Assembly: GCA_031316145.1 (NCBI GenBank)
Contig: JALDQZ010000012.1
Location: 1 to 32,000 of the forward strand
Length of the DNA: 32,000 nt
Reading direction: 5' to 3'
Origin: Candidatus Brocadiaceae bacterium
GTDB lineage: Bacteria; Planctomycetota; Brocadiia; Brocadiales; Brocadiaceae
The position numbers and the translations under genes were made by a program. Shown here one piece after another: positions 2,524 through 27,924 of this stretch; positions within the stretch are counted from its first letter, which is position 1, and each line of letters starts with the position of its first letter. A model generated the notes under the pieces. It was not told the origin of the DNA, ran no database searches, and saw only the letters and a list, made by a program, of their open reading frames with translations.

Positions 2524-3834
2524 TTAAAACTGGTAATTAAAGTTTATGGCCATTAGATAGTCAATAGAGTCGTATCTCCCATCGATAGATCCCTGTAACT
2601 CATCTCCTACAGAGTTAGTAATCCTTCTGTTTTCATACACGGCTATTCCGGAGGCAAAGTCTATCCATTTGTTCATTTTCCCCCCCCAGCGATATTCAAA
2701 CCCGGTAAACACTGCATGCCTGCTGCTCATGGGGATAGATGGCTCAAAGGTATCACTTGGTACAGGGGATTCATGAAATGCATAACCTCCTCGTAATTTT
2801 ATGGTTTCATTCAGCAGGTATTCTCCTCCAAGGGCAAATCCCAGAGTATTGTGCCAGTTTCGAACATCCTCATTGCCTCCATCGAGAATGGGGTTTGATG
2901 GTGCAAAATCGAATCTTAGCACATCAAACCTCGTCCAATTAGTCCACTGAACGTCTGCCTCTACACTCCATCGCTCCCGGTGTTTATATGCATAACCTAA
3001 AATAAGTATTTCAGGAAGCGTAAGGGTAGTTCTTGCTTTTGTAGAGAATGATTCTCCGCCAAATGCTTCTGCGGTTGCTCCGCTCAGATTGGAAAACTTT
3101 AGAGATCCTTTTGTGTCAATATCTGCTTTGCTTCGGAATGAAATACCAATAGTGTGTTGGGGTGTAATGTTGTAGAGTATCCCAATGTTGTACCCAACAC
3201 CATCGCCGTGAACATCATCAAGATCCTGAAATCCGTCCGGGGTTGTTGTGTCTTGAGGGGTGCCAGTTAAGGAAGCATTAAGAAGGCCTACGTTTACACG
3301 TTTTTCCACATCAGACTTGGCGTAGTAGTAATCAAGGCCTGCACCGATAGAAAGAAATGAGAATGGTTTAAAGGTAATGGTAGGGTTAACATTGAGAATA
3401 GCCAAATTAAAATCGGTCACTACGTATCTTGAAAACCCGTCTTCTTCCCAGTTGCCTCTCAAACCATAAGGTGCAGAAATACCAATTCCTGTGGCTAATT
3501 TATCCTCTATGAGCGGGCAGGCAAAAAAAAGATTTGGTATGGTGTTTATCCCCGTGCCCATATCCTCATGTATGCCGTTTCCATGGTACTCTACTTTGGG
3601 AATGACAAAGCTGGCGCCTGTGGAGATTTGCGGTCTTTTTAACTGAGTAAGTCCGGCAGGATTAAATATAATTGCAGATGCGTCATCTGCTCGGGCAACA
3701 AAGGCGTTTGCCTGTGCTAATCCTACGGCGCTGAAAGACGGACTATGGAATCCGGAGGCGATCTGTGCTGAGATATCCATTTCATGAACGAAGTACGATA
3801 CGAGGAAAACAAAAACTAGAAAGAGTTGTTTCAT
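2524..3834 (-). CDS. Outer-membrane hydrophobic-compound / long-chain fatty acid channel, OMPP1/FadL/TodX family
   Basis: N-terminal signal peptide. Family-typical N-terminal segment AVGLAQANAFVARADDASAIIFNPAGL. Alternating beta-strand pattern and a C-terminal aromatic end NFNYQF. Confidence 0.8.
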   Translation of the reverse strand: MKQLFLVFVFLVSYFVHEMDISAQIASGFHSPSFSAVGLAQANAFVARADDASAIIFNPAGLTQLKRPQISTGASFVIPKVEYHGNGIHEDMGTGINTIPNLFFACPLIEDKLATGIGISAPYGLRGNWEEDGFSRYVVTDFNLAILNVNPTITFKPFSFLSIGAGLDYYYAKSDVEKRVNVGLLNASLTGTPQDTTTPDGFQDLDDVHGDGVGYNIGILYNITPQHTIGISFRSKADIDTKGSLKFSNLSGATAEAFGGESFSTKARTTLTLPEILILGYAYKHRERWSVEADVQWTNWTRFDVLRFDFAPSNPILDGGNEDVRNWHNTLGFALGGEYLLNETIKLRGGYAFHESPVPSDTFEPSIPMSSRHAVFTGFEYRWGGKMNKWIDFASGIAVYENRRITNSVGDELQGSIDGRYDSIDYLMAINFNYQF

Positions 3835-4611: not shown

Positions 4612-5841
4612 ATGAAAAAGAAAATCGTGATAACCGGCATGGGTATGGTGAGTTCCCTTGGCATCGGTCTTGATGAAAACTGGGAACGGTATCTATCCGG
4701 GGTATCGGAGATTAAGGAATATGAAATAGAAGGTATGGATTTAGTTACCCATGCGGGAAAGGTTTCGGATGACAAACTCGGCCCGTATATTCCTGAAAAG
4801 AAAAAGGGTAAGATTGATCGTTTTACCTGCTTTGCCATGGTTGCCTCGAAAATGGCGCTTGAGGACGCAAAAATTGATGAAGGATTTGAGAGAGAAAAGA
4901 TAGGCGTTTTTATCGGTAGCGCCTTTAGTGGGTTGAATATCATAGAAAAACAGCTCAAGGTGCTCTATCGTGAAGGCCCAAGAAGAGTTCATCCCCTTTT
5001 AATGCAAAATAATATCACCAATGCCTCATCAGGTGAGGTCGCTATTGAGTTTACCCTGAAAGGTCCCAATATTGGATTTGCAAGCGGAGGATGTTCTGCT
5101 GGCTACAGCTTGATTCAGGCATGTAATACCCTGCAGCTCCATGATATTGATGCCATAGTTGTTGGCGGGACTGAAGCTCCGTTGCTGCCCTATGTGTTTG
5201 CTGAATTAAAATCGAATGGTTTGTATCAAACAAACGGTTATGACCAAGACAAAGTGAGTCGTCCCTTTGATAGCGCGCGAAAAGGTTTTGTTCTCAGTGA
5301 GGGGTCCGGCGTGGTCATTTTGGAGACACTAAGAAGCGCGGAGAAAAGGGGCGCGGAAATATATGGAGAACTTGTAGGGTGTGGGGCTTCTTATGGGAAG
5401 AATAATTACACAAATCAACAAAACCACGGTTTTTTATCCAAGGTGGCCTGCATACAACAAGCGTTGGAGTCCGCGGCCATTCAGCCATCACAGGTAGAGT
5501 ATATAAACGCGAGCGGCATATCAGGGATAGAGGAAGACAGAGAAGAATCGGAGGTAATGCAAACGGTATTTGGAAGAGATGTCCAGAACATACCGGTAAG
5601 TTCGACGAAGGGCACTTTTGGTTACTCAATTGGCGCATCGGGTGCAATTGATGCGATCTTTTCATTATTGTCGTTAAAAAAACAAACATTGCCACAGACT
5701 CAGAATCTTGAGCATATTGATCCGTCATGTGGAACCATTCCTATTCTGAAAGAATCAATGGAAAAGCCGGTAAACATCATACTTTCAAATAACTTTGATT
5801 ATGCCGGCAATAATGTTTCGCTGGTATTTCGGCGTATTTAA
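4612..5841 (+). CDS. Beta-ketoacyl synthase-like protein (FabF fold) lacking both catalytic histidines (Cys/Ser/Tyr)
   Basis: Thiolase-fold KS motifs are present. Cys161 is kept in SGGCSAG (TGT 5092-5094). NASGISG replaces NAHGTST (Ser, AGC 5512-5514). SSTKGTFGYSIGASG replaces SSTKSMTGHLLGAAG (Tyr, TAC 5623-5625). The C-terminal FDYAGNN replaces FGFGGTN. Confidence 0.85.
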   Translation: MKKKIVITGMGMVSSLGIGLDENWERYLSGVSEIKEYEIEGMDLVTHAGKVSDDKLGPYIPEKKKGKIDRFTCFAMVASKMALEDAKIDEGFEREKIGVFIGSAFSGLNIIEKQLKVLYREGPRRVHPLLMQNNITNASSGEVAIEFTLKGPNIGFASGGCSAGYSLIQACNTLQLHDIDAIVVGGTEAPLLPYVFAELKSNGLYQTNGYDQDKVSRPFDSARKGFVLSEGSGVVILETLRSAEKRGAEIYGELVGCGASYGKNNYTNQQNHGFLSKVACIQQALESAAIQPSQVEYINASGISGIEEDREESEVMQTVFGRDVQNIPVSSTKGTFGYSIGASGAIDAIFSLLSLKKQTLPQTQNLEHIDPSCGTIPILKESMEKPVNIILSNNFDYAGNNVSLVFRRI

Positions 5842-5892
5842 TTGCTACATTTTTCGGCACAAAGGCAAAAAGGCGGAAGTCGCAAAGCACAA

Positions 5893-7137
5893 ATGAACAA
5901 ACTTACTAAAGAAAATAAGGTCGTTGTAACGGGGTTAGGGATCATTACTCCGATAGGGATTGGGGTTGATTCATTCTGGGATGCTGTCATTGCCGGAAAA
6001 TCCGGGATTTCATTGATCTCGCGGTTTGATATGGAAAATTATCCTACAAAGATTGCCGGAGAAATAAGGGATTTTTATCCTGAAAACTATATGTCTGAGG
6101 AACTGAAGAATTTTTTATGCAGAAGTTCTCAACTTGGAGTGGCAGCGGCTCAAATGGCATTGGATGATGCACGGTTAAATCTTTCCAATGTAAGGAATAG
6201 TAGTATTGGGATAACCATTGGATTGGGAGCTGAAACATTGTCCTACTACGATGAAAAAACGGCAATTGAGGAAAATAATTATACTTTGCGTTCAAATCCT
6301 CCCATAGAAAACAGGCATTTGACAAATATCATTTCCGATATTTTTCATCTTTCTGGTCAAAATGTTATTGTTGCAACGGCGTGTTCCAGTGGAAATCAGG
6401 CGATTGGTATTGCTCGAGACATGATTCAATCAGGTCAGGCAGACATCGTTCTGGCTGGCGGAGTTGAGGCGCCGATTTTTCCCCTGTATTTTGCGTCATT
6501 TTGCTCCTTGAGAATCATGTCGAAAAGAAACGATCAGCCTGAAAAGGCAAGCAGGCCGTTTGATAAGGAAAGGGATGGGTTTGTAATGGGTGAGGGCGCC
6601 GGGATATTGGTCATTGAGAGCGCTGAAAATGCGCACGAAAGGGGGGCGCCTATCTATGCTGAAATAGCGGGTTACGGCGCTACGAGTGACGCCTTTCACA
6701 TGACCATGCCTTCGAGGGATAGGAAAGAAATATGCAAGGCAATGCGTTCGGCAATACAGGATGCCGGTCTGGATATGAACGGCATTGACTATATCAATGC
6801 GCACGGGACATCAACACCGGCAAATGACAGTGGTGAAACGATGGCAATAAAAACCGTTTTTGGTGACAGGGCTTATGACATACCGGTAAGTTCAACGAAA
6901 TCAATGACAGGTCATTTAATTGGAGCTGCTGGCGCTGTAGAACTTATAACATGCATATTAGCAATGAAAAATTCTGTAATTCCGCCTACCATTAATTTAG
7001 AGCATCCAAGCCCTGATTGTGATCTGGACTATGTGGCTAATGAGGCGAGGGAAAAAGAAATTCGAACGGCTCTTTCGAATTCCTTTGGTTTTGGCGGAAA
7101 TAATTCGACCATTGTAGTAAAAAAAGTAATTCAATGA
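5893..7137 (+). CDS. fabF: Beta-ketoacyl-ACP synthase II (FabF-type), canonical Cys/His/His
   Basis: ATACSSG (Cys164, 6382-6384), NAHGTSTP (His304, 6802-6804), SSTKSMTGHLIGAAG (His341, 6913-6915) and NSFGFGGNN. I prefer the ATG at 5893 (MNKLTKENKVVVTGLG) to the TTG at 5842 used in the ORF track. Confidence 0.88.
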   Translation: MNKLTKENKVVVTGLGIITPIGIGVDSFWDAVIAGKSGISLISRFDMENYPTKIAGEIRDFYPENYMSEELKNFLCRSSQLGVAAAQMALDDARLNLSNVRNSSIGITIGLGAETLSYYDEKTAIEENNYTLRSNPPIENRHLTNIISDIFHLSGQNVIVATACSSGNQAIGIARDMIQSGQADIVLAGGVEAPIFPLYFASFCSLRIMSKRNDQPEKASRPFDKERDGFVMGEGAGILVIESAENAHERGAPIYAEIAGYGATSDAFHMTMPSRDRKEICKAMRSAIQDAGLDMNGIDYINAHGTSTPANDSGETMAIKTVFGDRAYDIPVSSTKSMTGHLIGAAGAVELITCILAMKNSVIPPTINLEHPSPDCDLDYVANEAREKEIRTALSNSFGFGGNNSTIVVKKVIQ

Positions 7138-7310: not shown

Positions 7311-7577
7311 ATGGATAATGTGACGGATAATGATATTAAGGAAAGGCTAAAAAAAATACTGGCAAAGGAACTGAAGATGGAGCCTGAGGATATTTCCGAT
7401 GATGCGCACATTACTGATGATATCGGAGTTGAATCTGCGGAAATGATTAATCTCTTATATGATATAGAAAGTGAGTTTAACATAGAAGTCTCTAATGAAG
7501 AGGCAAGTCAGAACTTAGTCATATGCAAAATGACAAATTTGATAAAAGAAAAAATGGAAATGAAGTCTGTAAAATAA
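7311..7577 (+). CDS. Acyl carrier protein, divergent (GVESAE instead of GxDSL)
   Basis: An 88-aa acidic protein. DDIGVESAEMINLLYDIESEF aligns to AcpP [20 protein letters not shown], with the putative phosphopantetheine Ser42 at 7434-7436. Good RBS (gggagag). Confidence 0.8.
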   Translation: MDNVTDNDIKERLKKILAKELKMEPEDISDDAHITDDIGVESAEMINLLYDIESEFNIEVSNEEASQNLVICKMTNLIKEKMEMKSVK

Positions 7578-7713: not shown

Positions 7714-7782
7714 TTTCAATTTTCTTGGCGGTCTCTGTGGTTAATTTTTTGATAATGACTTTTGTTTTTTAAGGGGCACAAA

Positions 7783-9567
7783 ATGATTTGTTCACGGGGC
7801 ATGGACATACTGCTTTGGAATTCTTTTATGGGCAAGGCCTATTCTGTCAGTGACTGTTTTAAAGAAAATGGCATTGGGTTGCTGGTCAGGGCATGTAAAG
7901 ACGCAGGTTTTTCCATGACGGTTGAAGACCCTGCAAGGATTGATTTTTATTCGTCATTTACAAAAAATGAACTTGAACCGGAGCTTTCAAGGCTCTCAGC
8001 GCATGTGTTTGGCAAGAAAAATGGTGAAGATAGCGCGTCATTACGCAAGGAGTGGGATTCTCTTCAAGAGAATCTCTCTTGTGCCATCAAAGGAAAAATG
8101 GAGGAATATCTCAATAGTCTTGCAAAAAAAGTGCGTGATGAACAGGTAAAAGTGCTGGGGATTAAGACCTGGCTGGGAGATAGATTTACGTACTCCGAGG
8201 AGCTCACCCGAAAGGTAAACCAACTGAGCCCGAATACCATCGTCATTGCCGGCGGTCCACAGGTCAATCAATTCAAAATCCATGCGCTTGAAGAAAGCCC
8301 TTTTGACTTCTGCATAGATGTTGAGGGGGAAACAACATTGACCAAAATTGTGGCTATGGTAAAAGAAATGTATGGGAGGGGTTGTAAAAAGGTAGAAGTA
8401 ATCAACAGGATAACTGAGCTTGCAAAGACCGGTGAACTGCAAAACCTTATTTACCGGGACGCTGATAATACCATAAGAGAATCAACGATCAGACGATTGC
8501 CCTTAAACAAAAAAACTTTTCCCCTCTATGAAAAAGAAGATGGAAAGGCAGATATCGCGGTAATTAATGAATCTTCGGGCTGCTATTATGGAAAGTGTGG
8601 CTTTTGTTCCCATCCAAACATTACCGGGAAATATCAAACCAGGGATGTGGACATTACCCTTCAGGAGATAAAAGAGAACATTCAAAAATATAGTATCGGA
8701 CTCTTCCGGTTTGCGGGATCTGTTACCCCAGCTTCTCTGGGCAGGAAGATTGCCAATGCAATAGTAAAAGAAGGATTGCATATTGAGTATTCCATGTTTG
8801 TCAGGGCTGAAAATAGAGCAAAGGCCCGAATTACTGAACTGATCAATACGTACGAGGAAATGATTCGTTCCGGACTTCGGGCCGTTTTCATGGGTGTTGA
8901 GGCTGTGGACAAAAAGCTCCTTTCAGAGAGCATGCAGAAAGGAAGTTCCATTGCAGACATGTATTATACCATCAAGGCCCTGAAACAGGCATCCTATAAT
9001 CAGGGAATGCCTGTTGATGTAGGAGTAAGTTTTATTTATCCGTGCCCGATTCCTTCAAATACTGGAACAACTCATGAAAAGGTGTTAGAAAAAAATTTGT
9101 GTTTCCTGCGCTCATTAAAAATCGAGAATTTTATGCCGGATTCCGTGCTTATCACCCCGGGTGTGCCTCTTCCCCTGACAGCATGGCAATTAAAGCCAAA
9201 ACAGTTCGGTTTTGATCTGCCTGAAGATTATGTTCAAAAAATTATACGGTATGAGTATGAACTCACAAAGGACCCAAGTGTATGGCCAGATCTGGATATC
9301 ACTTCAAACGGAATCAGGTTTAAGGATATGTTGAAGATGTCAGGGCAGATGGAAAAGAAGGTCAGGAAAATGGGGTATACGGTAAATGTGTCTGACGAAC
9401 ATTGTCTGGCTGCAAGAAGTTCCGGTTTTGTCGGGCAGAAAGGATTAGAAGAATTTAAGTTAAAGAGTGACATGGCATTACTTACCACCGATTATCGCTT
9501 CCTGAGAGAGGTGTATAACAAAATAAATTCATACAGCAGGGCGCTGGCTGAGAAAAATAATTCATAG
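7783..9567 (+). CDS. Radical SAM enzyme with N-terminal cobalamin-binding-like domain (class B-like) and non-canonical CX4CX2C cluster motif
   Basis: The N-terminal Rossmann-like segment IVIAGGPQVNQF...DFCIDVEGETTLTKIV resembles B12-binding radical SAM domains. Cluster motif GCYYGKCGFCSH (Cys codons at 8581, 8596, 8605). I saw no SPASM-type C-terminal Cys pattern. The ATG at 7783 has an aagggg RBS, whereas the track ORF starts at TTG 7762. Confidence 0.8.
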   Translation: MICSRGMDILLWNSFMGKAYSVSDCFKENGIGLLVRACKDAGFSMTVEDPARIDFYSSFTKNELEPELSRLSAHVFGKKNGEDSASLRKEWDSLQENLSCAIKGKMEEYLNSLAKKVRDEQVKVLGIKTWLGDRFTYSEELTRKVNQLSPNTIVIAGGPQVNQFKIHALEESPFDFCIDVEGETTLTKIVAMVKEMYGRGCKKVEVINRITELAKTGELQNLIYRDADNTIRESTIRRLPLNKKTFPLYEKEDGKADIAVINESSGCYYGKCGFCSHPNITGKYQTRDVDITLQEIKENIQKYSIGLFRFAGSVTPASLGRKIANAIVKEGLHIEYSMFVRAENRAKARITELINTYEEMIRSGLRAVFMGVEAVDKKLLSESMQKGSSIADMYYTIKALKQASYNQGMPVDVGVSFIYPCPIPSNTGTTHEKVLEKNLCFLRSLKIENFMPDSVLITPGVPLPLTAWQLKPKQFGFDLPEDYVQKIIRYEYELTKDPSVWPDLDITSNGIRFKDMLKMSGQMEKKVRKMGYTVNVSDEHCLAARSSGFVGQKGLEEFKLKSDMALLTTDYRFLREVYNKINSYSRALAEKNNS

Positions 9568-9588
9568 TTTAAAAAATGCATATCTAAA

Positions 9589-9615
9589 AAGGCACAAAGA
9601 CAGCGGGAACAAAGG
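9589..9615. repeat. Left imperfect inverted repeat flanking the four-helix-bundle cassette
   Basis: aaggcaca (9589-9596) and ggaacaaagg (9606-9615) recur as reverse complements at 9966-9973/9989-9996 and 9977-9986. Confidence 0.55.
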
Positions 9616-9623
9616 AGCAAAGG

Positions 9624-9961
9624 ATGATAAGGAGTTATAGGGATCTAAAAATACGGTAGTATATTCGATAACAAAGTTATTGCCAAAAGAGGAGTTATAT
9701 GGATTGGTATCCCAAGTCAGGAAAAGTGCCGTTTCTATGCCAAGTAATATTGCAGAGGGTTACGGAAGAAACTCTACCAATGAGTATATTCGATTTCTCC
9801 AAATATCGAGTGGCTCTTTGTATGAATTACAAACTCAACTTTTGATTTGTTTAAAATTAAGATACTTATCAAAAGAAACATTTGAAAGCACGTATGAGAA
9901 GAGCAGAGAAATAGAAAGAATATTTAGCCGCTTAATAAAAAAATTGGATAAAAACAATTAA
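9624..9961 (+). pseudogene. Four-helix-bundle protein of the 23S rRNA intervening-sequence (S23-like, PF05635-type) family, disrupted near the 5' end
   Basis: The family core is AVSMPSNIAEGYGRNSTNEYIRFLQISSGSLYELQTQL. The ATG at 9624 gives the family-typical MIRSYRDLKI and then a stop at 9657. Helix 1 resumes in another frame (VVYSITKLLPKEELYGL), which implies a small deletion plus a frameshift. Only a TTG-initiated 93-aa remnant (9680-9961) is open. Confidence 0.65.
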
Positions 9962-9963
9962 AC

Positions 9964-9996
9964 TCTGTGCCTTCTGCCTTTGTTCCTCTGTGCCTT
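9964..9996. repeat. Right imperfect inverted repeat flanking the cassette (contains ctgtgcctt twice)
   Basis: tgtgcctt occurs at 9966-9973 and 9989-9996, and cctttgttcc at 9977-9986. These are reverse complements of the motifs at 9589-9615. Confidence 0.55.
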
Positions 9997-10074
9997 AATA
10001 GCTGCGATATTTCAAATTTTTCAACAAAGTTTATTGTTACTTTTTGAACTCCTTTCTTTATACAGATACATCTC

Positions 10075-11331
10075 ATGATGAAAAGACGAGTGGTGATTAC
10101 CGGTCTGGGGATATTGGCCCCGAATGGAATTGGAAAAGAGGCTTACTGGGACGCAATCATCAATGGTCGATCAGGAATAAACAGAATTTCCTCGTTTGAT
10201 CCTTCTTCTTTCACGACTCAGATTGCTGGTGAGGTGGAAAATTTTGATCCAAAAGACTATGTTGATTCAAGGATGGTGGCTCGATGTGGGAGATTTACCC
10301 ATTTTGGTATTGCAGCCTCAAGAATGGCAACTGCTGATGCCGGTATAGACTTCAGCAAGGAAAACAAGGAGAGATGTGGTGTCTGTTTTGGCACCACATT
10401 AGGCCCGAATAATGATGTGTATGAAACACAGCACAGGAAATTTATAAGTTCTGGTCCTCTGTCTGTGGGACGTCTTACACCAGTTGAGATTACACCGCAT
10501 GTGACGACGGGCTATATCTGTTCAGATCTTCATATTGCCGGGCCGAATTCTACGCTTACTTCAGGATGTTCAACCGGGCTCGATGTGATGGGTTGGGGGC
10601 ACAAAATGATACAACAGGGGAAGATCGATGTTGCGGTTATCGGGTGCGCAGATACGCCAATCTTTCCGTTTATTTTGTCTGCTTTATGTAACCTGGGAAT
10701 TCTTTCCAGGAGTAATAAGGAGCCAGAAAAGGCCTCAAGGCCATATGACAAAAGACGTGATGGCATGGTGCTCAGTGAAGGTGGTGTTTCAATTGTGCTG
10801 GAGGAATTACATCATGCCCTGGATAGGGGCGCGGATATCTATGCCGAGGTATTGTCCTTTGCCTCTACCTGCGATGCTCAGGATATCGTGAATGCTGATA
10901 CCGGCGGGCAGGCTCTGATTTCCGCAATGGAAGAGGTTTTGGTGAGCGGCAGAGTTGGAAAAGAGGAGATAGATTATATTTGTGCCCACGGAAATAGCAT
11001 GCCTTCCTATGATATTGCAGAAACAAATGCCTTTAAGGCCTTCTTTGGTGAGCGTTCGTACAGAATTCCTGTAAGTTCCATTAAATCCATGACTGGTCAA
11101 TCATTTGCTGCCGGAGGCGGGTTTCAGGTGGTGGCAACGAGCCTTAGTCTTAAAAATGGGTTTGTTCCTCCCACCATTAATCTGGACGAACCAGATCCTC
11201 TCTGTGACCTTGATTACGTACCCCATGAAGCCAGACGGTTTTCCATGGAAACCGCCCTGATAAATAGTCATAGTGTTGGAAATACCCATGCAGCTCTTGT
11301 GTTGCGAAGATTTTCTGGAGAAGGAAGGTAA
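10075..11331 (+). CDS. Beta-ketoacyl synthase paralogue with Cys/His/Gln triad
   Basis: TSGCSTG (Cys165, 10567-10569), CAHGNS (His305, 10987-10989), SSIKSMTGQSFAAGG (Gln342, CAA 11098-11100, at the second His position). The C-terminal NSHSVGNTH replaces NSFGFGGTN. Confidence 0.85.
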   Translation: MMKRRVVITGLGILAPNGIGKEAYWDAIINGRSGINRISSFDPSSFTTQIAGEVENFDPKDYVDSRMVARCGRFTHFGIAASRMATADAGIDFSKENKERCGVCFGTTLGPNNDVYETQHRKFISSGPLSVGRLTPVEITPHVTTGYICSDLHIAGPNSTLTSGCSTGLDVMGWGHKMIQQGKIDVAVIGCADTPIFPFILSALCNLGILSRSNKEPEKASRPYDKRRDGMVLSEGGVSIVLEELHHALDRGADIYAEVLSFASTCDAQDIVNADTGGQALISAMEEVLVSGRVGKEEIDYICAHGNSMPSYDIAETNAFKAFFGERSYRIPVSSIKSMTGQSFAAGGGFQVVATSLSLKNGFVPPTINLDEPDPLCDLDYVPHEARRFSMETALINSHSVGNTHAALVLRRFSGEGR

Positions 11332-13901
11332 TGACTATGTTCCAGGCAACCTACATTTTGATAAGTTTGTGTATTGGAGGCCTTGGGATATTTGTGTTCC
11401 TGAAAGATCCAAGAAACAGTATTAATAAAAGATTTTTTCTCTACACATTGGTGATAGCAGTATGGGTATTTTCTATTAATCTTACCCTTCTAGCAAAAGA
11501 TACAACGATAGCGACTTCTAGACTAAGAATTGTTTTTTCTGTAGCTTCTCTTATGGGACCAAGTTTTTTTTTCTTTTCATCGGTATTTCCGGACCGAAAA
11601 GAAAGAACTTTTCAAAGATATCTGTGTCTTTTGTTCTTTGCAGCAAGTATCATTTTCATATGTACTTCCCCCTCATTAGTGAAAAAATCGGCTTTTGAAG
11701 GCGATAAAATACGTGCTGAATATGGTTCCCTTTTCATCCTGTTTTGGATTCACCTTTTAAGCTGTATGGGATATTCTTTCTACATCCTTTACAAGAAAAT
11801 CCGTTGGGCTTACGGCGTTACGAGATTACAGATTCAATATGTATTTTTTGGAATAGTGTTATTTGTTTTATGTGCTTTTATTACAAATTTTCTCTTTCCA
11901 TTGTTTGGTTTGTGGCAGGCTGAACAGTATGTCCCACTGACAGCCATTCCCATTCCGATAATGATTGCGATTGCGATTGTAAAGTATCACCTCATGGATA
12001 TTACCGTGGTGCTGAGGAAGAGCACGATGTATGCTGTTCTGACGGTCGTCCTGAGTTTTATCTATATTTTTGTTTGGGTAATTGTGGGTAACCTGTTGAA
12101 GATACCAGAATATAAAGAAGCTGTTACTGCTGTTGTTTCCACATCGGTGATGGTCTTTACTTTTGTTTTAACCGGAGAATCAATCCAGTATTTTGTTGAA
12201 AAGACCTTGTTTCGGACCAAATACAGTAGCTCAAAGATCCTGAGTGATTCTACGGCAATACTTTCATCCATTCATGATTTGCCGGGACTTCTTCATTCTG
12301 CGATCCAATATTTATATGATTCTGTAGGTATGGAGAAGATAAGTGTATTTCTCCGGGATGAAACACACAGTCATTATACCCTGAGGGCTTCAATAAAATT
12401 TCCGATAGATGCAAAATCTATTATTCACTGCGATAACGCCATTGCTACCAGGCTTTCTCAAAATAAAACGGTTTTATCACTTGATCAGTTAAAACGTTTC
12501 CATCGAAGAAAATCCGATGTCTTGTTGATAGACGTTTTGGAGCAACTTGACGTTGATAGCTGTATACCATTGGTTCAGGGGAATGATCTCATCGGTTTCA
12601 TTTTTTTGGGGAAAAAGATAAATAAAAAGGTTTATACACTGGATGATATCCAGATGTTTATTGCATTTTCCGGTCAAATGGCCCTGGCTGTAAGGAATGC
12701 CCACCTGTACCTGGGATTGAAAGAATCCATGGTCTACAGGGACAACATCCTTGAGAGTTTAAGAAGTGGAGTTATTGTTATAGATTATAATGAAGAGGTT
12801 ACCCTGATAAACTATGAGGCAAAAAAAATAATCGGGAAGAAAAATATGCAATCAAGCAAAACGATACTTGCTGCTCTTGGGAAAGACACATACCGGTTGC
12901 TGAGATATACGCTGAAAAACGATACAGAATTCAAAAATGTTGAAACCACTATCAAGAAAGGTGATGAAATAAATCTCTACAGCGTGACGACAACACAATT
13001 GAAAACGGAAACCGGTGAAAAACTTGGGGCTTTAATGATTCTTACCGATTTGACAGAACTGAAAATGCTTCAGGCTGAAAAACAACATTCCGAAAGATTG
13101 GCGTATCTTGGCACCCTTGCCGCGAATATTGCCCATGAGATAAGGAATCCACTTGTTCCTATCAACACCTATTTCCAGCTTCTTCCCCAAAAGAAGGGAG
13201 ATGAAAAATTTCATACGGAATTTCGAACGTTAGCGCTCAATGAAATAGGCAGGATCAACAGAATCATTGAAGAGATGTTGGACCTGGCAAAACCTTCCAA
13301 TCCTATTTTACAACCGATAAATCCTCACCGTGTGATAATGGAAACCATAAAATTACTCAGAGATACTGTATCAGAGAAGGATATTGAAATAGTTACAGAA
13401 TTAAACGAAATAAACTGTCAGCTTTGTGCCGATGAAGATAAGGTGCGGCAGGTCATGGTCAACATTTTGCAAAACAGCATTGAAATCCTGCCAAAAAATG
13501 GGCATATTCAGGTAAGCACAATCTTGATAGATGGCCTTTCTTATTTTAAGAAAAAGGCGAAAAAACACCCTAGTAGCATTTTCTTTTCCTTTGTTCCCTC
13601 AGTGTTACATGACGAAAATAAACAGTTTTTTGTAATGAAGGTATCCGATAATGGCAAAGGTATTTCGGCAGAAAAGATGCAGTATATTTTTGAACCGTTT
13701 TTCACGGATAAAAATAAAGGAACAGGACTTGGATTGGCAGTGGTATACAGAATCGTAAAGGATCATGAAGGTTGTATTTATGTTGAAAGTCAGGAAGACA
13801 AGGGAACAGACTTTTATATTTGCTTTCCAATAAACCAGGTCAATGTGTACCTGTTTCCTGCCGATCAAGAAAAAACACTGGAAAGTTCTCACTCCTTATA
13901 A
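11331..13901 (+). CDS. Polytopic membrane sensor histidine kinase (about 8-9 TM N-domain, GAF, PAS, HisKA, HATPase)
   Basis: Hydrophobic N-terminal 290 aa. H-box ANIAHEIRNPL, N-box VNILQNSIE, G1 SDNGKGI, G2 GTGLGLAV. The start ATG overlaps the KS3 stop (TAATG at 11329-11333) and is preceded by ggagaaggaagg. Confidence 0.88.
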   Translation: MTMFQATYILISLCIGGLGIFVFLKDPRNSINKRFFLYTLVIAVWVFSINLTLLAKDTTIATSRLRIVFSVASLMGPSFFFFSSVFPDRKERTFQRYLCLLFFAASIIFICTSPSLVKKSAFEGDKIRAEYGSLFILFWIHLLSCMGYSFYILYKKIRWAYGVTRLQIQYVFFGIVLFVLCAFITNFLFPLFGLWQAEQYVPLTAIPIPIMIAIAIVKYHLMDITVVLRKSTMYAVLTVVLSFIYIFVWVIVGNLLKIPEYKEAVTAVVSTSVMVFTFVLTGESIQYFVEKTLFRTKYSSSKILSDSTAILSSIHDLPGLLHSAIQYLYDSVGMEKISVFLRDETHSHYTLRASIKFPIDAKSIIHCDNAIATRLSQNKTVLSLDQLKRFHRRKSDVLLIDVLEQLDVDSCIPLVQGNDLIGFIFLGKKINKKVYTLDDIQMFIAFSGQMALAVRNAHLYLGLKESMVYRDNILESLRSGVIVIDYNEEVTLINYEAKKIIGKKNMQSSKTILAALGKDTYRLLRYTLKNDTEFKNVETTIKKGDEINLYSVTTTQLKTETGEKLGALMILTDLTELKMLQAEKQHSERLAYLGTLAANIAHEIRNPLVPINTYFQLLPQKKGDEKFHTEFRTLALNEIGRINRIIEEMLDLAKPSNPILQPINPHRVIMETIKLLRDTVSEKDIEIVTELNEINCQLCADEDKVRQVMVNILQNSIEILPKNGHIQVSTILIDGLSYFKKKAKKHPSSIFFSFVPSVLHDENKQFFVMKVSDNGKGISAEKMQYIFEPFFTDKNKGTGLGLAVVYRIVKDHEGCIYVESQEDKGTDFYICFPINQVNVYLFPADQEKTLESSHSL

Positions 13902-19783: not shown

Positions 19784-20422
19784 ATGGCAAAATATTATCC
19801 AATATATCTACACATTAGAGACAAGAAATGCGTGGTGGTAGGGGGCGGAAAGGTTGCATGGCGCAAGGTATGCAGTTTAAGAGAGGCAGGAGCAAGGGTA
19901 ACGGTCGTGGCTCCTGATATATGTGCTGAGCTGAGTCGGGAGGAAGGGGTTGAAATCATAAAACAGAAGTATGATGAATCATTTCTTAAAGAGGCGATGA
20001 TTGTCATCGCTTCAACAGATGATGAACAGGTGAATACAACCGTTTATTCTGATGCAATGAAAAGAGGCTTATTGGTCAATGTTGTTGACAGACCGGAATT
20101 TTGTTCTTTTATCGTTCCTTCCTCAATAGAACGGGGTGACCTTAGAATTAGTATTTCAACGGGAGGGGCGAGCCCTGCCCTGGCGAGGAATATACGCAAA
20201 TCTTTGGAAGGGCAGTTTGGGAAAGAATATTGCGAGTTTACAAGGCTTTTATCAGAGATGCGAAAAAAGGTTCTTGTAGAAGTACGGAATGAATCAATAA
20301 GACGAGATATTCTGCAGCGAATAGCAGGGTTGGATTTTCTGGAGGTTATAAAAAAAGATGGTCCCGACGTAGCACAACGAAGGATGTTAGATGTTATTTC
20401 TGAGAAATGTCCCAAAGAATAA
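19784..20422 (+). CDS. sirC: Precorrin-2 dehydrogenase / sirohydrochlorin ferrochelatase (CysG N-terminal / SirC-like)
   Basis: NAD-binding VVVGGGKVAWRKVCSLREAGARVTVVAP. Also ISISTGGASPALARNIRKSLE. Confidence 0.8.
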   Translation: MAKYYPIYLHIRDKKCVVVGGGKVAWRKVCSLREAGARVTVVAPDICAELSREEGVEIIKQKYDESFLKEAMIVIASTDDEQVNTTVYSDAMKRGLLVNVVDRPEFCSFIVPSSIERGDLRISISTGGASPALARNIRKSLEGQFGKEYCEFTRLLSEMRKKVLVEVRNESIRRDILQRIAGLDFLEVIKKDGPDVAQRRMLDVISEKCPKE

Positions 20423-20457
20423 ACCAGGTATAGTGGTATCCTTGTTTTCATTTTTGC

Positions 20458-20486
20458 TTGCAAGAATTTTTGTGAAGTGATACTAT
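20458..20486 (+). promoter_or_regulatory. Candidate sigma-70-type promoter (TTGCAA-17 bp-TACTAT) for the sulfur cluster
   Basis: Hexamers at 20458-20463 and 20481-20486, with the -10 hexamer ending 108 bp upstream of the ATG at 20595. Confidence 0.35.
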
Positions 20487-20594
20487 TAAAATGGATAGAA
20501 TAATGGGTGTTCATTTTTATGTATGTGCCTATTTTTTTAGTGGTTACTCACGATACGTCGTTAAGGAATGGTTCTAAATTATATTGGAGTATAA

Positions 20595-21485
20595 ATGGCT
20601 GAAAAGAGTGTAAAACAAAGAATAGATTTTGGGGAATTAAAATCCGGCGGTTTTATAAAGCAGACACAAAAAGACCTGTTTACCGTCCGGTTAAAAGTGC
20701 CTGGTGGGCGTATTACGCCAGAGAGAATGACAAAGATTGCTGAAGTTGCAAAAAAATATAGTCGGCTTGGGTATTGTCACCTGAGTTTCAGGCAGTCTGT
20801 TGAAATTATTGGTGTCCATATTGATGATTTTGATGCTGTTGTGAAGGAGCTTGCTGAGGTAGGGCAGAAAGTCGCTTCTTGTGGTCCCAGGGTAAGAGTG
20901 CCTACGGCATGCGGGGGATGTGAATACAATCCCAATGGAATTATGGATACACAATCTAAGGCGTTGGAGGTTGATGAGAAATTTTTTGGCACACCATGTC
21001 CTCACAAATTTAAGATAGGATTTTCCGGATGTCCCATTGATTGTACAAGAAGCAGAGAATCTGATTTGGGGTTTCAAGGTGTGGTGTATCCGGTATGGAC
21101 TGAGGATTTATGCAATGGTTGTACCCTGTGTGCTAAGGCATGTGCAGAGGGTGCGATAGTATCCGATACAGAAGGAAAACCTGTGTTTGACGAGTCGAAG
21201 TGTGTGTATTGCGGCGACTGCATCAGGGCATGCCCTACAGATGCATGGAGGGACAAAGTAAAAGGATGGCTGGTACGGGTAGGGGGAAAACATGGAAGAC
21301 ATCCGCGTGAAGCTGACCAGGTACTCAACTTTTTACCCGATGATAAAGTAAATGATTTTGTCGATGCAACGGTAAAGTGGTACAAGGAAAACGGGAAGCC
21401 AAAAGAGAGAATCGGCACCTGTATAGATCGCGTTGGTCTGGACAAATTTAAAAAAGAAGTTGTTGCTACATTAACAGACAATTGA
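20595..21485 (+). CDS. Small sulfite/nitrite reductase-like siroheme-[4Fe-4S] protein with inserted 2x[4Fe-4S] ferredoxin domain (Dsr-like protein)
   Basis: NiR/SiR ferredoxin-like half domain (VRLKVPGGRITPERM). Siroheme-cluster Cys motifs TACGGCEYNPNG and GFSGCPIDC. Ferredoxin motifs CNGCTLCAKAC and CVYCGDCIRACP. Confidence 0.65.
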   Translation: MAEKSVKQRIDFGELKSGGFIKQTQKDLFTVRLKVPGGRITPERMTKIAEVAKKYSRLGYCHLSFRQSVEIIGVHIDDFDAVVKELAEVGQKVASCGPRVRVPTACGGCEYNPNGIMDTQSKALEVDEKFFGTPCPHKFKIGFSGCPIDCTRSRESDLGFQGVVYPVWTEDLCNGCTLCAKACAEGAIVSDTEGKPVFDESKCVYCGDCIRACPTDAWRDKVKGWLVRVGGKHGRHPREADQVLNFLPDDKVNDFVDATVKWYKENGKPKERIGTCIDRVGLDKFKKEVVATLTDN

Positions 21486-21497
21486 TTGGGGAATCAG

Positions 21498-21917
21498 GTG
21501 AGGGATAAAAAAAAATTTGTTATATTTGCCCATAGTGGGACCTATGATAAGCTCTATCAAATCATAACGCTGGCTATTACAGCTGCCTCATCCGGAAGAG
21601 AAACACATATTTTCCTTTTCTTTTGGGCCTTGAAAAAGTTTGTAAACGAAGAATTTGACGTTACAAGGCTTTCTTTTGAATTTGGTGAAGAAGGTGAATG
21701 CCTGGCCAAGCATATGCAGAAGCTCAATCCTGTATCTCTCAAAGAAATATTTCAAGAGGTGAGAGGTTTGGGGAATTTAAAAGTTTATGCCTGTACAGCT
21801 GCAGTAAAACTTATGGGTTTGGATGAAACCGTTGTAAAATCAAAAGTGGATGATATTCTTGGTTTGACAACCCTGTTGGAAATAGCAGAGGGGGCGGAAA
21901 CTCAGTTGTTTATATGA
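21498..21917 (+). CDS. DsrE/DsrF-like sulfur-relay family protein
   Basis: KKFVIFAHSGTYDKLYQ...VYACTAAVKLMGL with a conserved Cys. I prefer the GTG at 21498 (gggg 6 nt upstream). The track ORF starts at TTG 21486. Confidence 0.6.
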   Translation: MRDKKKFVIFAHSGTYDKLYQIITLAITAASSGRETHIFLFFWALKKFVNEEFDVTRLSFEFGEEGECLAKHMQKLNPVSLKEIFQEVRGLGNLKVYACTAAVKLMGLDETVVKSKVDDILGLTTLLEIAEGAETQLFI

Positions 21918-21935
21918 GAACTGAGGGTTGATACT

Positions 21936-22883
21936 TTGACAAACGTTGCAATGAAAAATAGAGCACGTCTAACGAAGGATGCCTTTAGGGGTTCAGTTTT
22001 GCATACGGTAGGGAATACCCCGCTCATCAGAATACGCAGGCTTACAAAGGGGGTGGGGAATAAGGGCGTAAACGTCTATGCAAAGGCAGAATGGTTTAAT
22101 CCGGGAGGGTCTATAAAGGACCGTGCGGCCTTACGCATTATTGAAGATGCTGAAAAGGCAGGTGGATTAACTCGCGGGAAAACTATTATTGACTCAACAT
22201 CGGGAAACACGGGCATTGCTTATGCCATGATTGGTGCGGTAAAAGGATATGACATTACTTTGGTGATGCCTTTGAATGTCAGTGAGGAACGCAAAAGGAT
22301 TGTACGTGCTTTTGGAGCGAAAGTCATCTTTTCAGATCCGATGCTGGGGTCAGACGGTGCAATGGCGGAAGCGAAGCGGATGGTAAAAGAAAATCCATCG
22401 AAGTATTTTTATGCCGATCAGTATAATAATCCTGCGAATTGGATGGCTCATTATACCACTACGGGTGTTGAAATATGGAAACAAACGGCAGGAAAAGTAA
22501 CACATTTTATTGCATGCCTTGGTACGAGTGGCACTTTTATGGGTACGGGGAGGCGTCTGAAGGATTATAATTCAGACATACAGCTAATATCTGTTGAGCC
22601 TTCTACTCCAATGCATGGATTGGAAGGGATGAAGCATATGGCTTCATCAGTGGTTCCTGGTATTTATGATGGAGAGTATGCGGATAGAAAGATGACCGTG
22701 CAGACGGAAGATGCATATGCGATTGTAAAAAGACTTGCGGTAGAGGAAGGTTTTTTTGTCGGTTATTCTTCGGGTGCCGCGCTTGCGGCTTCCTTGAAGC
22801 TTGCAAATGAAATTGAGCAGGGATTGATTGTTACGGTTTTCCCCGATAGAGGTGACCGGTATCTCAGTACCCGTTTTTGGTAA
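21936..22883 (+). CDS. cysM: PLP-dependent cysteine synthase (CysM/CysK family)
   Basis: GNTPLIRI, NPGGSIKDRAA (PLP Lys) and SSGNTGIAYA. A gaggg RBS lies 8 nt upstream of the TTG at 21936. Confidence 0.85.
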   Translation: MTNVAMKNRARLTKDAFRGSVLHTVGNTPLIRIRRLTKGVGNKGVNVYAKAEWFNPGGSIKDRAALRIIEDAEKAGGLTRGKTIIDSTSGNTGIAYAMIGAVKGYDITLVMPLNVSEERKRIVRAFGAKVIFSDPMLGSDGAMAEAKRMVKENPSKYFYADQYNNPANWMAHYTTTGVEIWKQTAGKVTHFIACLGTSGTFMGTGRRLKDYNSDIQLISVEPSTPMHGLEGMKHMASSVVPGIYDGEYADRKMTVQTEDAYAIVKRLAVEEGFFVGYSSGAALAASLKLANEIEQGLIVTVFPDRGDRYLSTRFW

Positions 22884-22919
22884 TGAACCGGATTGTAGAA
22901 CATTTGAGGTGTTTGTGCT

Positions 22920-23339
22920 GTGTTATCTATTGGAAAAGATGTGATTCGAGAGATAAAAAAAGAGGTAAAAAAAAATTATCCGTTCGAATGTTGTGGGTTG
23001 CTCATCGGAACAAACACCTCGGAAAAGCGTGTAGTTGAAGTGCGGCCGGTACAAAACAAGAATACAAAAAGAACGCATGATCGCTATGAAATAGACGGTA
23101 GAACATTTGATAAGGTAGATAAGGAAGCGAAAAAGAAGGGCCTTCAAATAATAGGCATTTATCACTCGCATCCAGATCATCCGGCTATCCCTTCTGAATT
23201 TGATACAGAGAACGCCTGGAGTGTATATTCTTATCTCATTGCTTCCAGAGAAAAAGGGAAGAAAATTGATATAAGGTCATGGGTATTCGATGAAGTAGAG
23301 AGAAAGTTTGAAGAAGAGGAAATACGTTATATAGAGTAA
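22920..23339 (+). CDS. JAMM/MPN+ zinc metalloprotease (Mec+-like)
   Basis: ECCGLLIG (catalytic Glu) and an exact JAMM motif HSHPDHPAIPSEFD (HxHx7SxxD). GTG start with a gaggtg RBS. Confidence 0.85.
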   Translation: MLSIGKDVIREIKKEVKKNYPFECCGLLIGTNTSEKRVVEVRPVQNKNTKRTHDRYEIDGRTFDKVDKEAKKKGLQIIGIYHSHPDHPAIPSEFDTENAWSVYSYLIASREKGKKIDIRSWVFDEVERKFEEEEIRYIE

Positions 23340-23442
23340 CGTTCGGTAATATCTCGGTATTGACAAAGAAGAAGATTGTTTGTGAATCTATGCGAAACAG
23401 GCTCTATGTATGATCATAAAAACTGAACAGAGGAGTTGTCAC

Positions 23443-23688
23443 GTGGCTGAGGAAGAAAAAATTTGTCCGGATGATAAAATTGATTTGCGGGGAGTACTTT
23501 GTCCTATTAATTTTGTAAAAACGAAATTAAAATTAGAGATGCTGGATTCAGGGCAGGTTTTAGAAGTGATTTTAGATGATGGTGAGCCGATGAGAAGTGT
23601 CCCGAAAAGTGTCAAAGAGGAAGGGCATAAAATCATAAAAGTCGAGAATATGGGAACTGCTTACCGCATACTGATAAAAAAAACATAA
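23443..23688 (+). CDS. TusA/SirA-like sulfurtransferase
   Basis: DLRGVLCPINFVKTKLKLEML (CPxP-type active-site Cys, here CPIN) and VILDDGEPMRSVPKSVKEEGH. The GTG at 23443 has a gaggag RBS 7 nt upstream. The alternative ATG at 23410 lacks one. Confidence 0.7.
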   Translation: MAEEEKICPDDKIDLRGVLCPINFVKTKLKLEMLDSGQVLEVILDDGEPMRSVPKSVKEEGHKIIKVENMGTAYRILIKKT

Positions 23689-23981: not shown

Positions 23982-24503
23982 ATGAAAACAAAAGGCAAGA
24001 AGCATACATATCATGCATCAGAAAAACAGGGGGGGATTTGGTTTACTATTTCCCGGAGAAATTTTTTCAGTTTAGCAGGTTGGGCGCTCTTTTTCGCGAC
24101 AATAGGGGCTTATCTGGGAGAGCTTGCAGGATATAAAGGGTTTTTTTATCCTAAGGTCCTTTTTGAGCCTTCACCACGATTTACGATAGGAGAGCCAGGC
24201 TCTTTTCCGGAAAATTCCGTGACCACGTTAAAGCCGAGAAAGATATTTGTTGTGCGAGATGGCAACAGTTTTAAGGCCATTTCAGTTGTATGTCAGCACT
24301 TAGGATGTGCGGTAGAGTTTTCTAAAGAGAAAAACATATTCGAGTGTCCTTGTCATGGCAGTAAATATTATCGAAATGGCGTAAACTTTGCCGGACCAGC
24401 GCCGAGGCCTCTTGACCACTTTGAAGTTCTTTTAAATGACAACGGTAAGCTGGTAGTAGATACAAGCGTAAAAGTGCCTTTAGAAACAGAGTTAGTAGTT
24501 TAG
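23982..24503 (+). CDS. Rieske [2Fe-2S] protein with Tat-type signal anchor
   Basis: Twin-arginine motif ISRRNFFSLAG followed by a TM helix. Rieske boxes CQHLGC and CPCHGS. Strong aggagg RBS. Confidence 0.92.
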   Translation: MKTKGKKHTYHASEKQGGIWFTISRRNFFSLAGWALFFATIGAYLGELAGYKGFFYPKVLFEPSPRFTIGEPGSFPENSVTTLKPRKIFVVRDGNSFKAISVVCQHLGCAVEFSKEKNIFECPCHGSKYYRNGVNFAGPAPRPLDHFEVLLNDNGKLVVDTSVKVPLETELVV

Positions 24504-24551
24504 TTTTGAATTTTACATCCTTATACTCTTTAATCATGAAGGTTTGAATTT

Positions 24552-26312: not shown

Positions 26313-26376
26313 GAAGTATTCTGTTATGAAGGGGAAAAAATGGTAATAAACGTAATACGGAGGAAGGGGCGTTTAA

Positions 26377-27147
26377 ATGAAATTAATTGAGGAGTTAAAA
26401 AGGAAAATCACAGACAATGAAATTTGGAGGTCTGTATTTCGCCACGGTTACGCAGATACCCCGAGAAACCGAGTTCTTCAGATTATCAGCAATGTATGGT
26501 TGCACTTGCATCCTGCAAAGGTTCGAGAGCACGGTACGCAAATCAGATTTACTTGGTGCATGGGAGGTATTACTTTTTTCGTATTCCTATTCGAGACGAT
26601 AACAGGTGTGCTGTTAATGTTTTATTATACGCCTGATGTGAATAGGGCTTATGCGGATATTGTGGACCTGATGTATGTTGTGCCTTTTGGCAGGTTTTTA
26701 AGAAACTCTCACAGATGGGGTGCGCACGCTATGGTAATTACGGTGAGTATTCATATGCTTCGAGTGTTTCTGACGGGTTCTTATAAGCCTCCAAGGCAGT
26801 TTAATTGGGTAGTTGGGGTAGTACTGTTGGTTCTTACGTTGTTGTTGAGTTTTACGGGTTATTTGTTGCCATGGGATCAGCTTGGATATTGGGCTATTAC
26901 CGTTGGTACTAATATGGCTCGTGCAACACCGCTTCTCGGTCATGAGGGTCCGTTTGCATATATCTTAGGTATGGAAGCGAATAATGATGTGCGTTTTGCA
27001 TTGCTGGGAGGCACATTGATCGAGGCTCCAGCTTTGTTGAGGGCTTATGTGTGGCATTGCATTGGAATACCACTGGTAGCATCGGCGTTGATGATGGTTC
27101 ATTTCTGGAGGGTAAGAAAAGATGGAGGGATCTCAGGTCCTCTGTAG
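26377..27147 (+). CDS. Cytochrome b, b6-type N-terminal half
   Basis: Helix [16 protein letters not shown] (His pair i, i+14). Helix [17 protein letters not shown] (i, i+15, as in b6). [13 protein letters not shown]. The C-terminus [10 protein letters not shown] matches the b6 C-terminus. WCMGGIT aligns to b6 YCLGGIT. Confidence 0.92.
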
Positions 27148-27201
27148 TGTTCAATTAAATTTTTCGTTAGATTATTGGAGAAATTTCTGAGGAGTGGTTC
27201 C

Positions 27202-27924
27202 ATGGCGGTAAGTGAAGGGAAAAGAGAGTTAGTCGAATTTAAAGACGACAAGGTTTTTACATGGCCCACCCTGGTTGCTAAGGAGTTCCTGGCTGCTATT
27301 TTTGTGACGGTAGGGCTGCTTGTCTATTCATATTATGTAGATGCTCCTCTTAGGGAGTTATCAAACCCTGGGCAAGCTGAAAATCCAGCAAAGGCTCCTT
27401 GGTATTTCTTGGGATTACAAGAGGCTTTAGTATATTTTGATCCATGGTATGCAGGCGTAGTTCTTCCCAGTATCATCATACTGGGATTAATTGTCATTCC
27501 GTATATAGACAATAATCCGAAAGGGAATGGCTATTTTACTTTTAAAGAGAGAAAGTTTGCAGTATCAGTTTTTATGTTTGGTTACATACTTTGGTATGTT
27601 TTGATTTATATTGGTACTGCTCTAAGGGGGCCGTTTTGGGCGTTTTTCTGGCCTTGGGAAGAATGGACGCATGATTTCCCCACCCCTGCTCCTTTACATA
27701 ATCTACCATTGCCTTTGGGGATAGTGCTGGTGTTCGGATTTTATTTCTTCGGATTGATTATACCTGCGCTGGTAAAAAGAGACTTCTTTTTGAGGATTGG
27801 GGTAATTCGTTACCTCATTACGATGGGTCTTCTTTTAACCATGATTGGCACCATAATTAAAATGGTTTTTCGGTTGGCATTTAGTGTTAAGTATATTATT
27901 GCCACCCCTTGGATTAACATATAA
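27202..27924 (+). CDS. Cytochrome b C-terminal half / subunit IV-like protein (extended)
   Basis: The Qo-region KAPWYFLGLQEAL aligns to b6f subunit IV PEWYFFPVFQIL. Multiple TM helices. The ATG at 27202 has a gaggag RBS, whereas the track ORF starts at TTG 27175. Confidence 0.85.
   Translation: MAVSEGKRELVEFKDDKVFTWPTLVAKEFLAAIFVTVGLLVYSYYVDAPLRELSNPGQAENPAKAPWYFLGLQEALVYFDPWYAGVVLPSIIILGLIVIPYIDNNPKGNGYFTFKERKFAVSVFMFGYILWYVLIYIGTALRGPFWAFFWPWEEWTHDFPTPAPLHNLPLPLGIVLVFGFYFFGLIIPALVKRDFFLRIGVIRYLITMGLLLTMIGTIIKMVFRLAFSVKYIIATPWINI

Follow-up and report, generated by a model that had tools for sequence, protein, structure and literature searches.

What role is left for a ketosynthase (KS) that has kept its acyl-accepting cysteine and lost both of the catalytic histidines? 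The question is raised by a stretch of 32,000 nucleotides from Candidatus Brocadiaceae bacterium (assembly GCA_031316145.1, contig JALDQZ010000012.1, positions 1 to 32,000; hereafter the window), in which such a protein, KS1, is encoded directly upstream of a complete ketosynthase, KS2, and an acyl carrier protein (ACP). The biosynthesis of the unusual lipids of anammox bacteria is unsolved, and current work centres on one cluster, the FabF pair of which was recently shown to be a heterodimer similar to that of a ketosynthase and a chain length factor (CLF). A second FabF-derived pair, not orthologous to the first, is found in the window, accompanied by an ACP of its own, a radical SAM (rSAM) enzyme of the B12 type and a third, aberrant ketosynthase. 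This pair, KS1 and KS2, probably forms a KS/CLF-like heterodimer of FabF origin as well; KS2 would be the condensing subunit and KS1 a non-condensing partner. The three genes on which the argument depends, and the KS1 motif to which it returns, are the following.

KS1, 4612-5841, + strand: 409 amino acids (aa), predicted FabF-derived partner subunit with Cys161/Ser301/Lys333/Tyr338 and DYAG in place of GFGG
KS1 helix-loop-helix (HLH) family motif: RVHPLLMQNNITN
KS2, 5893-7137 (mechanical open reading frame (ORF) 5842-7137), + strand: complete KAS II-type ketosynthase with Cys/His/His/Lys and GFGG
ACP, 7311-7577, + strand: dedicated acyl carrier protein, with the phosphopantetheine (PPant) serine conserved in G(V/I/A)(D/E)SA(D/E)M

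Active-site residues of KS1 and KS2

KS1, KS2 and the third ketosynthase, KS3, each contain both PF00109 and PF02801. Against TIGR03150, the KAS II/FabF model with a curated equivalog cut-off of 493.75 bits, KS2 scored 514 bits, while KS1 (348 bits) and KS3 (395 bits) fell under the cut-off. KS2 carries the Cys-His-His triad of the family; KS1 has Cys/Ser/Tyr instead. In the HMMER alignment to B. subtilis FabF (4ls5/4ls6), Cys161 of KS1 falls in the column of the nucleophilic Cys, Ser301 (codon 5512-5514) in that of the first catalytic His, Lys333 in that of the catalytic Lys and Tyr338 (codon 5623-5625) in that of the second catalytic His, and NNFDYAGNN stands where FabF has NSFGFGG. All motifs of KS2 are intact (ATACSSG, NAHGTSTP, SSTKSMTGH and NSFGFGG). 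The residues, codon positions and adjacency on the same strand (here the + strand) that had been given for the two proteins by a sequence-only reading, made by eye, were therefore confirmed by translation and alignment, and its claim that KS1 would be incapable of normal decarboxylating condensation is supported by them.

Beyond the two histidines, the active site of KS1 has changed in several other ways. There is one extra residue ahead of the Cys (the spacing from GP to Cys is 8 residues versus 7), which places the Cys one column off in gap-free alignments; the C-x-x-G elbow around it is retained. Both of the PPant-binding Thr residues are missing, with Ile/Val and Gly in their place, and the D265 gate-2 loop has been replaced. 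The pocket residue Ile108 is lost as well, and the top PDB sequence match of KS1 was the I108F mutant of B. subtilis FabF. As the PPant-binding Thr residues, the gate-2 loop and Ile108 have all been lost, the KS1 site looks, Cys aside, like an ordinary CLF-type dead site. On its surface, KS1 retains the basic ACP-docking residues KKxK and PRR, and Arg206 is substituted in most KS1 sequences. At residue 217 the window has an Arg (SRPFD, as in canonical FabF), where most orthologues have a Cys (SCPFD).

An AlphaFold2 (AF2) model of the KS1 monomer has the FabF fold (predicted template modelling score, pTM, 0.78; TM score 0.76 to FabF structures). Its core is confident, and the per-residue confidence (pLDDT) falls below 50 exactly in the interface elements. 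One of these, the HLH, is highly conserved and reads RVHPLLMQNN in KS1.

For KS2, the mechanical ORF opens at the TTG at 5842. Since the alignments of orthologues begin at residue 14-17 of this ORF, the ATG at 5893 is the likely start, which leaves a gap of 51 nucleotides (nt) between the two genes. The HLH of KS2 is rebuilt and has lost 4 residues. Also gone is the basic ACP-docking region 1, which in E. coli FabF consists of Lys65/Arg68/Lys69. Deletion of this region cripples E. coli FabF, and Arg206 is important for turnover in FabF.

Conservation of the pair and of the wider cassette

The KS1 family consists of about 54 sequence clusters with 59-100% identity, after which the following matches fall to 40%, and 67 columns are invariant across the full-length KS1 ORFs of many genomes. 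In 54 distinct sequences of the KS1 clade, the Cys, the Ser (at His303), the Gly (at Thr307) and the Lys are all invariant. The position of His340 is taken by Phe, Leu, Tyr, Cys or Val, Thr305 by Ile or Val, Ile108 by Phe or Tyr and Phe400 by Tyr. Judged by the invariance of Cys, Ser, Gly and Lys and by the gene order that is kept with them, the residue pattern of KS1 is not due to chance. Two further cysteines, Cys280 and Cys373, are also invariant across the family.

KS1 and KS2 match proteins of a Candidatus Brocadiaceae metagenome-assembled genome at 100% identity. The named members of the KS1 and KS2 families all belong to Brocadiales or to unclassified Planctomycetota (Brocadia sp. and Scalindua japonica, with Wunengus californicus as a named member for KS2). 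In the window, and likewise in 11 of 11 related loci, the gene immediately after KS1 is of the KS2 type, while the remaining content of the cluster is variable; an ACP and an rSAM gene usually accompany the pair. The Brocadia-type block seen in the window is found in L001-L004, L083 and L084. In L082, L086 and L087, KS1-KS2-ACP is accompanied by a LuxI/FeeM-like N-acyltransferase and another rSAM, to which L087 adds an HAE3/MMPL transporter. The order is ACP-KS1-KS2 in L081, and L085 has the KS1-KS2 pair alone. The acyltransferase of L087 (11687-12331) gave a match, below cut-off, to the 'PEP-CTERM/exosortase-associated acyltransferase'/LuxI/OlsB group.

Among the KS1 and KS2 homologues there was no UniRef-sourced or named match from Kuenenia, Jettenia or B. 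fulgida, Kuenenia and Jettenia not having been checked directly; the scan of genome contigs gave at least four anammox loci. This, together with the absence of the protein from Rattray's inventory, suggests that the cluster is patchy among anammox genera. On the basis of its apparent absence from Kuenenia, the cluster is probably not part of the core ladderane machinery, which limits its importance.

The order partner-KS-ACP was also found in three more distant loci, with gaps of 4-28 nt; L088 and L089 represent one distant clade and L090 the other. The partners of all three clades have the HLH motif (R/K)VHPxLMQNN in common, all the KS2-type proteins have the rebuilt HLH with its deletion, and all the cassette ACPs have DSA(D/E)M, within the longer motif that is common to all clades. 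In a neighbour-joining tree the partner clade was monophyletic in 100 of 100 bootstraps, and so was the KS2 clade; therefore the pair predates these lineages and has been inherited as a unit. An intact ketosynthase and a non-condensing KS-like protein are thus adjacent and co-inherited in the window, the 11 related loci and the three distant ones.

The catalytic triad of the partner differs between the clades. It is Cys/Ser/(Phe, Leu or Tyr) in the anammox clade and Cys/Tyr/Tyr in L090. In the L088 type, the Cys position is taken by Tyr, Phe, Ser or His and the first His position by Ser (also His or Asn), followed by Tyr, so that partners of both distant clades have Tyr at the second His position. 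Such drift is what a site retired from condensation would show. The sequence-only reading had called the pair the inverse of the KS/CLF pattern, because the partner keeps its Cys and has lost both His. This was overstated, as the triad is degenerate and drifting in the wider partner family, with Cys kept in two clades and replaced by Tyr, Phe, Ser or His in the third, and as KS1 has also lost the PPant-binding Thr residues, the gate-2 loop and Ile108. A partner without Cys, as expected of a CLF, is found in the sister clade (L088 type) and not among the anammox KS1 proteins.

In L090, the cassette follows genes for a hydrolase, a 4HBT thioesterase, a radical SAM enzyme, two NifD/K-like proteins and a NifH-like protein. 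The resulting neighbourhood (L090:2531-12821), with a nitrogenase-like reductase beside a mini fatty-acid synthase, is an unusual pairing. The repeated occurrence of the partner-KS-ACP cassette beside radical enzymes in several lineages, with this nitrogenase-like reductase among them, suggests a wider route to modified acyl chains.

The predicted heterodimer and its alternatives

From the observed residues, conservation, synteny and co-inheritance, we infer the formation of a heterodimer, the subunit on which the ACP docks and the nature of the product. KS1 and KS2 would be two subunits acting on the ACP encoded just downstream. KS2, with its intact Cys/His/His/Lys site and gating loops, would carry out acyl transfer, decarboxylation of malonyl-ACP and Claisen condensation, while KS1 would have no ability to decarboxylate. 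Instead, the HLH of KS1 (RVHPLLMQNN) would form the other wall of the KS2 acyl tunnel, and its basic surface patches, which are lost from KS2, would supply part of the ACP-docking surface. The B12-type radical SAM enzyme could then modify the acyl chain on the ACP, and KS3 could handle this chain further in Brocadia-type genomes. The Cys of KS1 would be a retained ancestral residue.

Residues specific to the partner or to KS2 point to the same interface. A residue counted as partner-specific when its conservation reached 90% or more in each of the two partner clades and it was rare in canonical FabF. Of the 11 partner-specific residues, 7 lie in the HLH (122, 130, 134, 135, 141 and 145) or in helix 195-210 (201), which gives a binomial p = 3e-4; for KS2-specific residues the same elements hold 11 of 29 (p = 2e-3). 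An obligate heterodimer, with KS1 shaping the tunnel and the docking surface, is favoured by this concentration at the interface, by adjacency and co-inheritance, by the loss of basic region 1 from KS2 while KKxK and PRR are kept by KS1, and by a crystallographic precedent from anammox bacteria. Also counted in its favour are the drift of the partner triad under a retained HLH motif, the loss of the PPant-binding Thr residues, the gate-2 loop and Ile108 from KS1, and the low confidence of the AF2 model in the interface elements. The proposal of the sequence-only reading that KS1 is the heterodimer partner of KS2 is, on the same grounds, the best reading of the pair.

The precedent is anammox Cluster I (KustE3603-3608), which encodes amxFabF2, with Cys/His/His, and amxFabFmut, together with amxACP, amxFabZ, a phytoene dehydrogenase (PDH) and a TIGR04072-type rSAM (bioRxiv 10.64898/2026.05.19.726425). 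Crystal structures showed that amxFabF2 and amxFabFmut form a KS/CLF-like heterodimer, amxFabFhet, of which neither subunit is active alone; HLH and helix elements are packed onto the opposite subunit and form the lining of the KS tunnel, and the ACP contacts both subunits (bioRxiv 10.64898/2026.05.19.726425). The pair in the window resembles amxFabFhet in being a FabF-derived anammox pair with the degenerate partner just upstream of the intact KS, in a cluster that includes its own ACP gene and one for a B12 radical SAM enzyme, and in the partner HLH that would line the KS tunnel. It differs in the triad of the partner: in amxFabFhet the Cys is replaced by Val/Thr and the His residues by Asn/Glu/Cys, where KS1 has Cys/Ser/Tyr. 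The two pairs are not orthologous.

The type II polyketide synthase (PKS) pairs of KS-alpha and CLF, such as actinorhodin ActI and ishigamide Iga11/Iga12, are similar in having adjacent genes for an intact KS and a non-condensing, tunnel-shaping subunit. However, CLFs are without the Cys (often with Gln in its place), whereas Cys161 of KS1 is invariant in the anammox clade. KS1 and KS2 are also closer to FabF than to PKS KS and CLF proteins, and there is no cyclase or aromatase in their context. Searches of the literature gave nothing specific on CLFs that keep the Cys, and none of the papers found describes this cluster.

Several observations weigh against this heterodimer. The net charges of the interface elements (the HLH and helix 193-210) are strongly different between KS1 and KS2, although the sign pattern is ambiguous and does not reproduce the complementary one of amxFabFhet. 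The Cys of KS1 is invariant in 54 sequences, while four residues occur at the same site in the sister clade, and of the 147 columns with as much variation in the sister clade, only 10 show none in the anammox clade. This speaks for selection on the Cys, for which a purely structural role of KS1 gives no explanation. The ACP-docking basic residues kept by KS1 also count on this side.

Another possibility is that KS1 is a Cys-dependent, non-decarboxylating, acyl-accepting subunit, alone or in a heterodimer with KS2, similar to the KS0 domains of trans-acyltransferase (trans-AT) and algal type I PKSs. A primer or intermediate could be transferred from ACP or CoA onto Cys161 and be held there or passed on. 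KS0 domains do not decarboxylate and accept acyl chains; they keep the Cys and lose the His of HGTGT, which is replaced by Ser in the algal examples, and purified KS0 was acylated from acyl-ACP. KS1 likewise keeps its Cys without the catalytic His residues, and the Cys is also kept in the second partner clade (L090). Retained with it are the C-x-x-G elbow, Lys333, the basic ACP-docking residues and, at Phe400, an aromatic side chain. However, KS0 domains belong to megasynthases, where they pass the chain from one ACP to another, and have usually lost one His, whereas KS1 is a discrete protein of 409 aa that has lost both His and both of the Thr residues that hydrogen-bond PPant (to Ile/Val and Gly). 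The insertion ahead of the Cys, the replaced gate-2 loop and the replacement of Arg206 in most KS1 sequences speak against acylation too. In I108F mutants of FabF the acyl pocket is narrowed, and the Phe or Tyr at this position in KS1 should narrow it in the same way. Moreover, the sister clade runs the same cassette without any Cys. On the proposal of the sequence-only reading that KS1 can probably be acylated, the evidence points both ways. We regard a KS0-like function of KS1 as unlikely, and it is the strongest of the alternatives.

If the Cys were catalytic, the heterodimer would have two thiol sites, with KS1 holding or priming the acyl group beside an elongating KS2, an arrangement that we also consider doubtful. 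Were it true, a two-thiol heterodimer would feed an acyl chain tailored by a radical SAM enzyme. With its retained Cys, KS1 is a natural test case for acyl carriage by a 'dead' KS partner.

It is less probable still that KS1 and KS2 form separate homodimers that act at different steps, with KS1 performing a non-Claisen reaction. The interface charges, in a crude analysis, would also fit interfaces that are complementary to themselves, and amxFabFmut of S. brodae, expressed alone, crystallised as a homodimer. Against this, the pair is strictly adjacent and co-inherited over a deep divergence, interface elements have been remodelled in both proteins, KS2 is without ACP-docking region 1 and the triad of the partner drifts.

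That KS1 is a functionless, decaying duplicate would account for its lost catalytic residues, but it is very improbable given the full-length ORFs conserved at 59-71% identity across many genomes, with their 67 invariant columns, and the homologues in two further clades.

The least probable alternative is that the pair is itself amxFabFmut/amxFabF2 (KustE3606/3605) of Cluster I, which comes from similar organisms and also has the partner gene upstream of the KS; it was rejected on residues, scores and cluster content. Besides the different residues of amxFabFmut, KS1 scored 189 bits to chain C of PDB 9s5h versus 279 to B. subtilis FabF, and KS2 scored 342 bits to chain B versus 401. Chains B and C are presumably the B. 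fulgida amxFabFhet, and these lower scores speak against orthology to them. The cluster in the window has no FabZ or PDH gene, its rSAM falls under the TIGR04072 cut-off, and it contains instead a third KS and flanking two-component regulators. The deviant FabFs of Kuenenia in Rattray's table (V/N/E, F/N/E and S/S/N) were considered as candidates for KS1 as well, and none of them is Cys/Ser/Tyr.

Intact and degenerate ketosynthases also occur joined in one chain. Among proteins P0393-P0402 there are many fusions of about 800 aa, in which one half is an intact KS and the other a degenerate one. The degenerate half of P0393 has retained the Cys and lost both His, and in the others the Cys is replaced by Ser, Ala, Gln or Tyr. 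P0393 and the PigJ-like KS-CLF fusions resemble the KS1/KS2 pair in this combination, but they are of a different family, with 27-33% identity to KS1 and KS2 and the KS in first place.

The rest of the cluster and of the window

The pair belongs to a lipid-type cluster of an anammox bacterium, which also encodes a third, aberrant KS, an ACP of its own and a radical SAM enzyme of the B12 type. This setting was missed by the sequence-only reading, as was the earlier publication of another KS/CLF-like FabF pair from anammox bacteria. The other genes of the cluster and its flanks are given here.

Histidine kinase, 38-1099: ahead of the sigma-54 regulator
Sigma-54-dependent response regulator, 1096-2472, + strand: in synteny ahead of KS1 in related loci
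FadL/TodX-type outer-membrane channel for hydrophobic compounds, 2524-3834, - strand: near the cluster in several related loci
B12-binding-domain rSAM enzyme, class B-like, 7762-9567, + strand: outside the 'ladderane' family
Four-helix-bundle gene (23S rRNA IVS protein family), 5'-truncated, 9680-9961, + strand: insertion unique to this genome
KS3, third FabF-like ketosynthase, 10075-11331, + strand: Cys/His/Gln, with HSVGN in place of FGFGG
7TM-GAF-PAS (seven-transmembrane, 7TM) sensor histidine kinase, 11331-13901, + strand: overlaps the stop of KS3 with its start; in synteny in every Brocadia-type locus

The rSAM enzyme was ruled out as a member of the 'ladderane' family TIGR04072, as it scored 54 bits against a cut-off of 360, and a PDB sequence search with it returned zero matches. 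The IVS-family ORF that follows, in the interval between the rSAM and KS3 genes (9568-10074), is missing about 25 N-terminal residues and has an in-frame stop upstream. This gene is absent from all of the orthologous loci, where the rSAM and KS3 genes nearly abut; it looks like the remnant of a recent insertion and is probably outside the pathway.

KS3, among the loci compared, is confined to the Brocadia-type version of the cluster. It does not have the Cys-His-His triad, and its PPant-binding Thr positions are Asn and Met. At the second His position its orthologues have Gln in L002 and L083 and His in L001, L004 and L084; since either residue is found, this site appears to tolerate His and Gln interchangeably.

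As the cassette is linked to the 7TM sensor kinase and the sigma-54 regulator in Brocadia-type genomes, there are hints that the product of the cluster could be a lipid or N-acyl signal that is sensed. For the N-terminal 7TM and GAF part of the kinase, the sole model match was PrsK of the PEP-CTERM system, below cut-off. No sigma-54 promoter consensus was found upstream of KS1 in the window or in related loci with strict or loose patterns, and an Rfam scan of the window (e.g. for a cobalamin riboswitch) found nothing. The FadL gene lies between the regulator and KS1 in the window, unlike in the other Brocadia loci. In L083 the kinase at the position of the histidine kinase ORF 38-1099 has 712 aa, and the ORF aligns only to its C-terminal half; there is an in-frame stop within the first 37 bases of the window, ahead of the ORF, which may be a truncated or split gene.

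Two blocks further along the window were also observed. Between 24000-30900, genes for a Rieske protein, an FeS/FAD NAD(P) oxidoreductase, a cytochrome b, multihaem cytochromes and an HAO-like multihaem protein form a group that looks like the locus of an anammox-type Rieske/cyt b complex, which fits an anammox host. The sulfur-related block at 19784-23688 contains genes for a sirohaem synthase-like protein, a small sulfite/nitrite reductase-like protein with ferredoxin domains, a DsrE-like protein, a pyridoxal phosphate (PLP)-dependent CysM/CysK-like protein, a JAB/Mov34 peptidase and TusA, and it resembles a set for carrier-protein-based cysteine synthesis.

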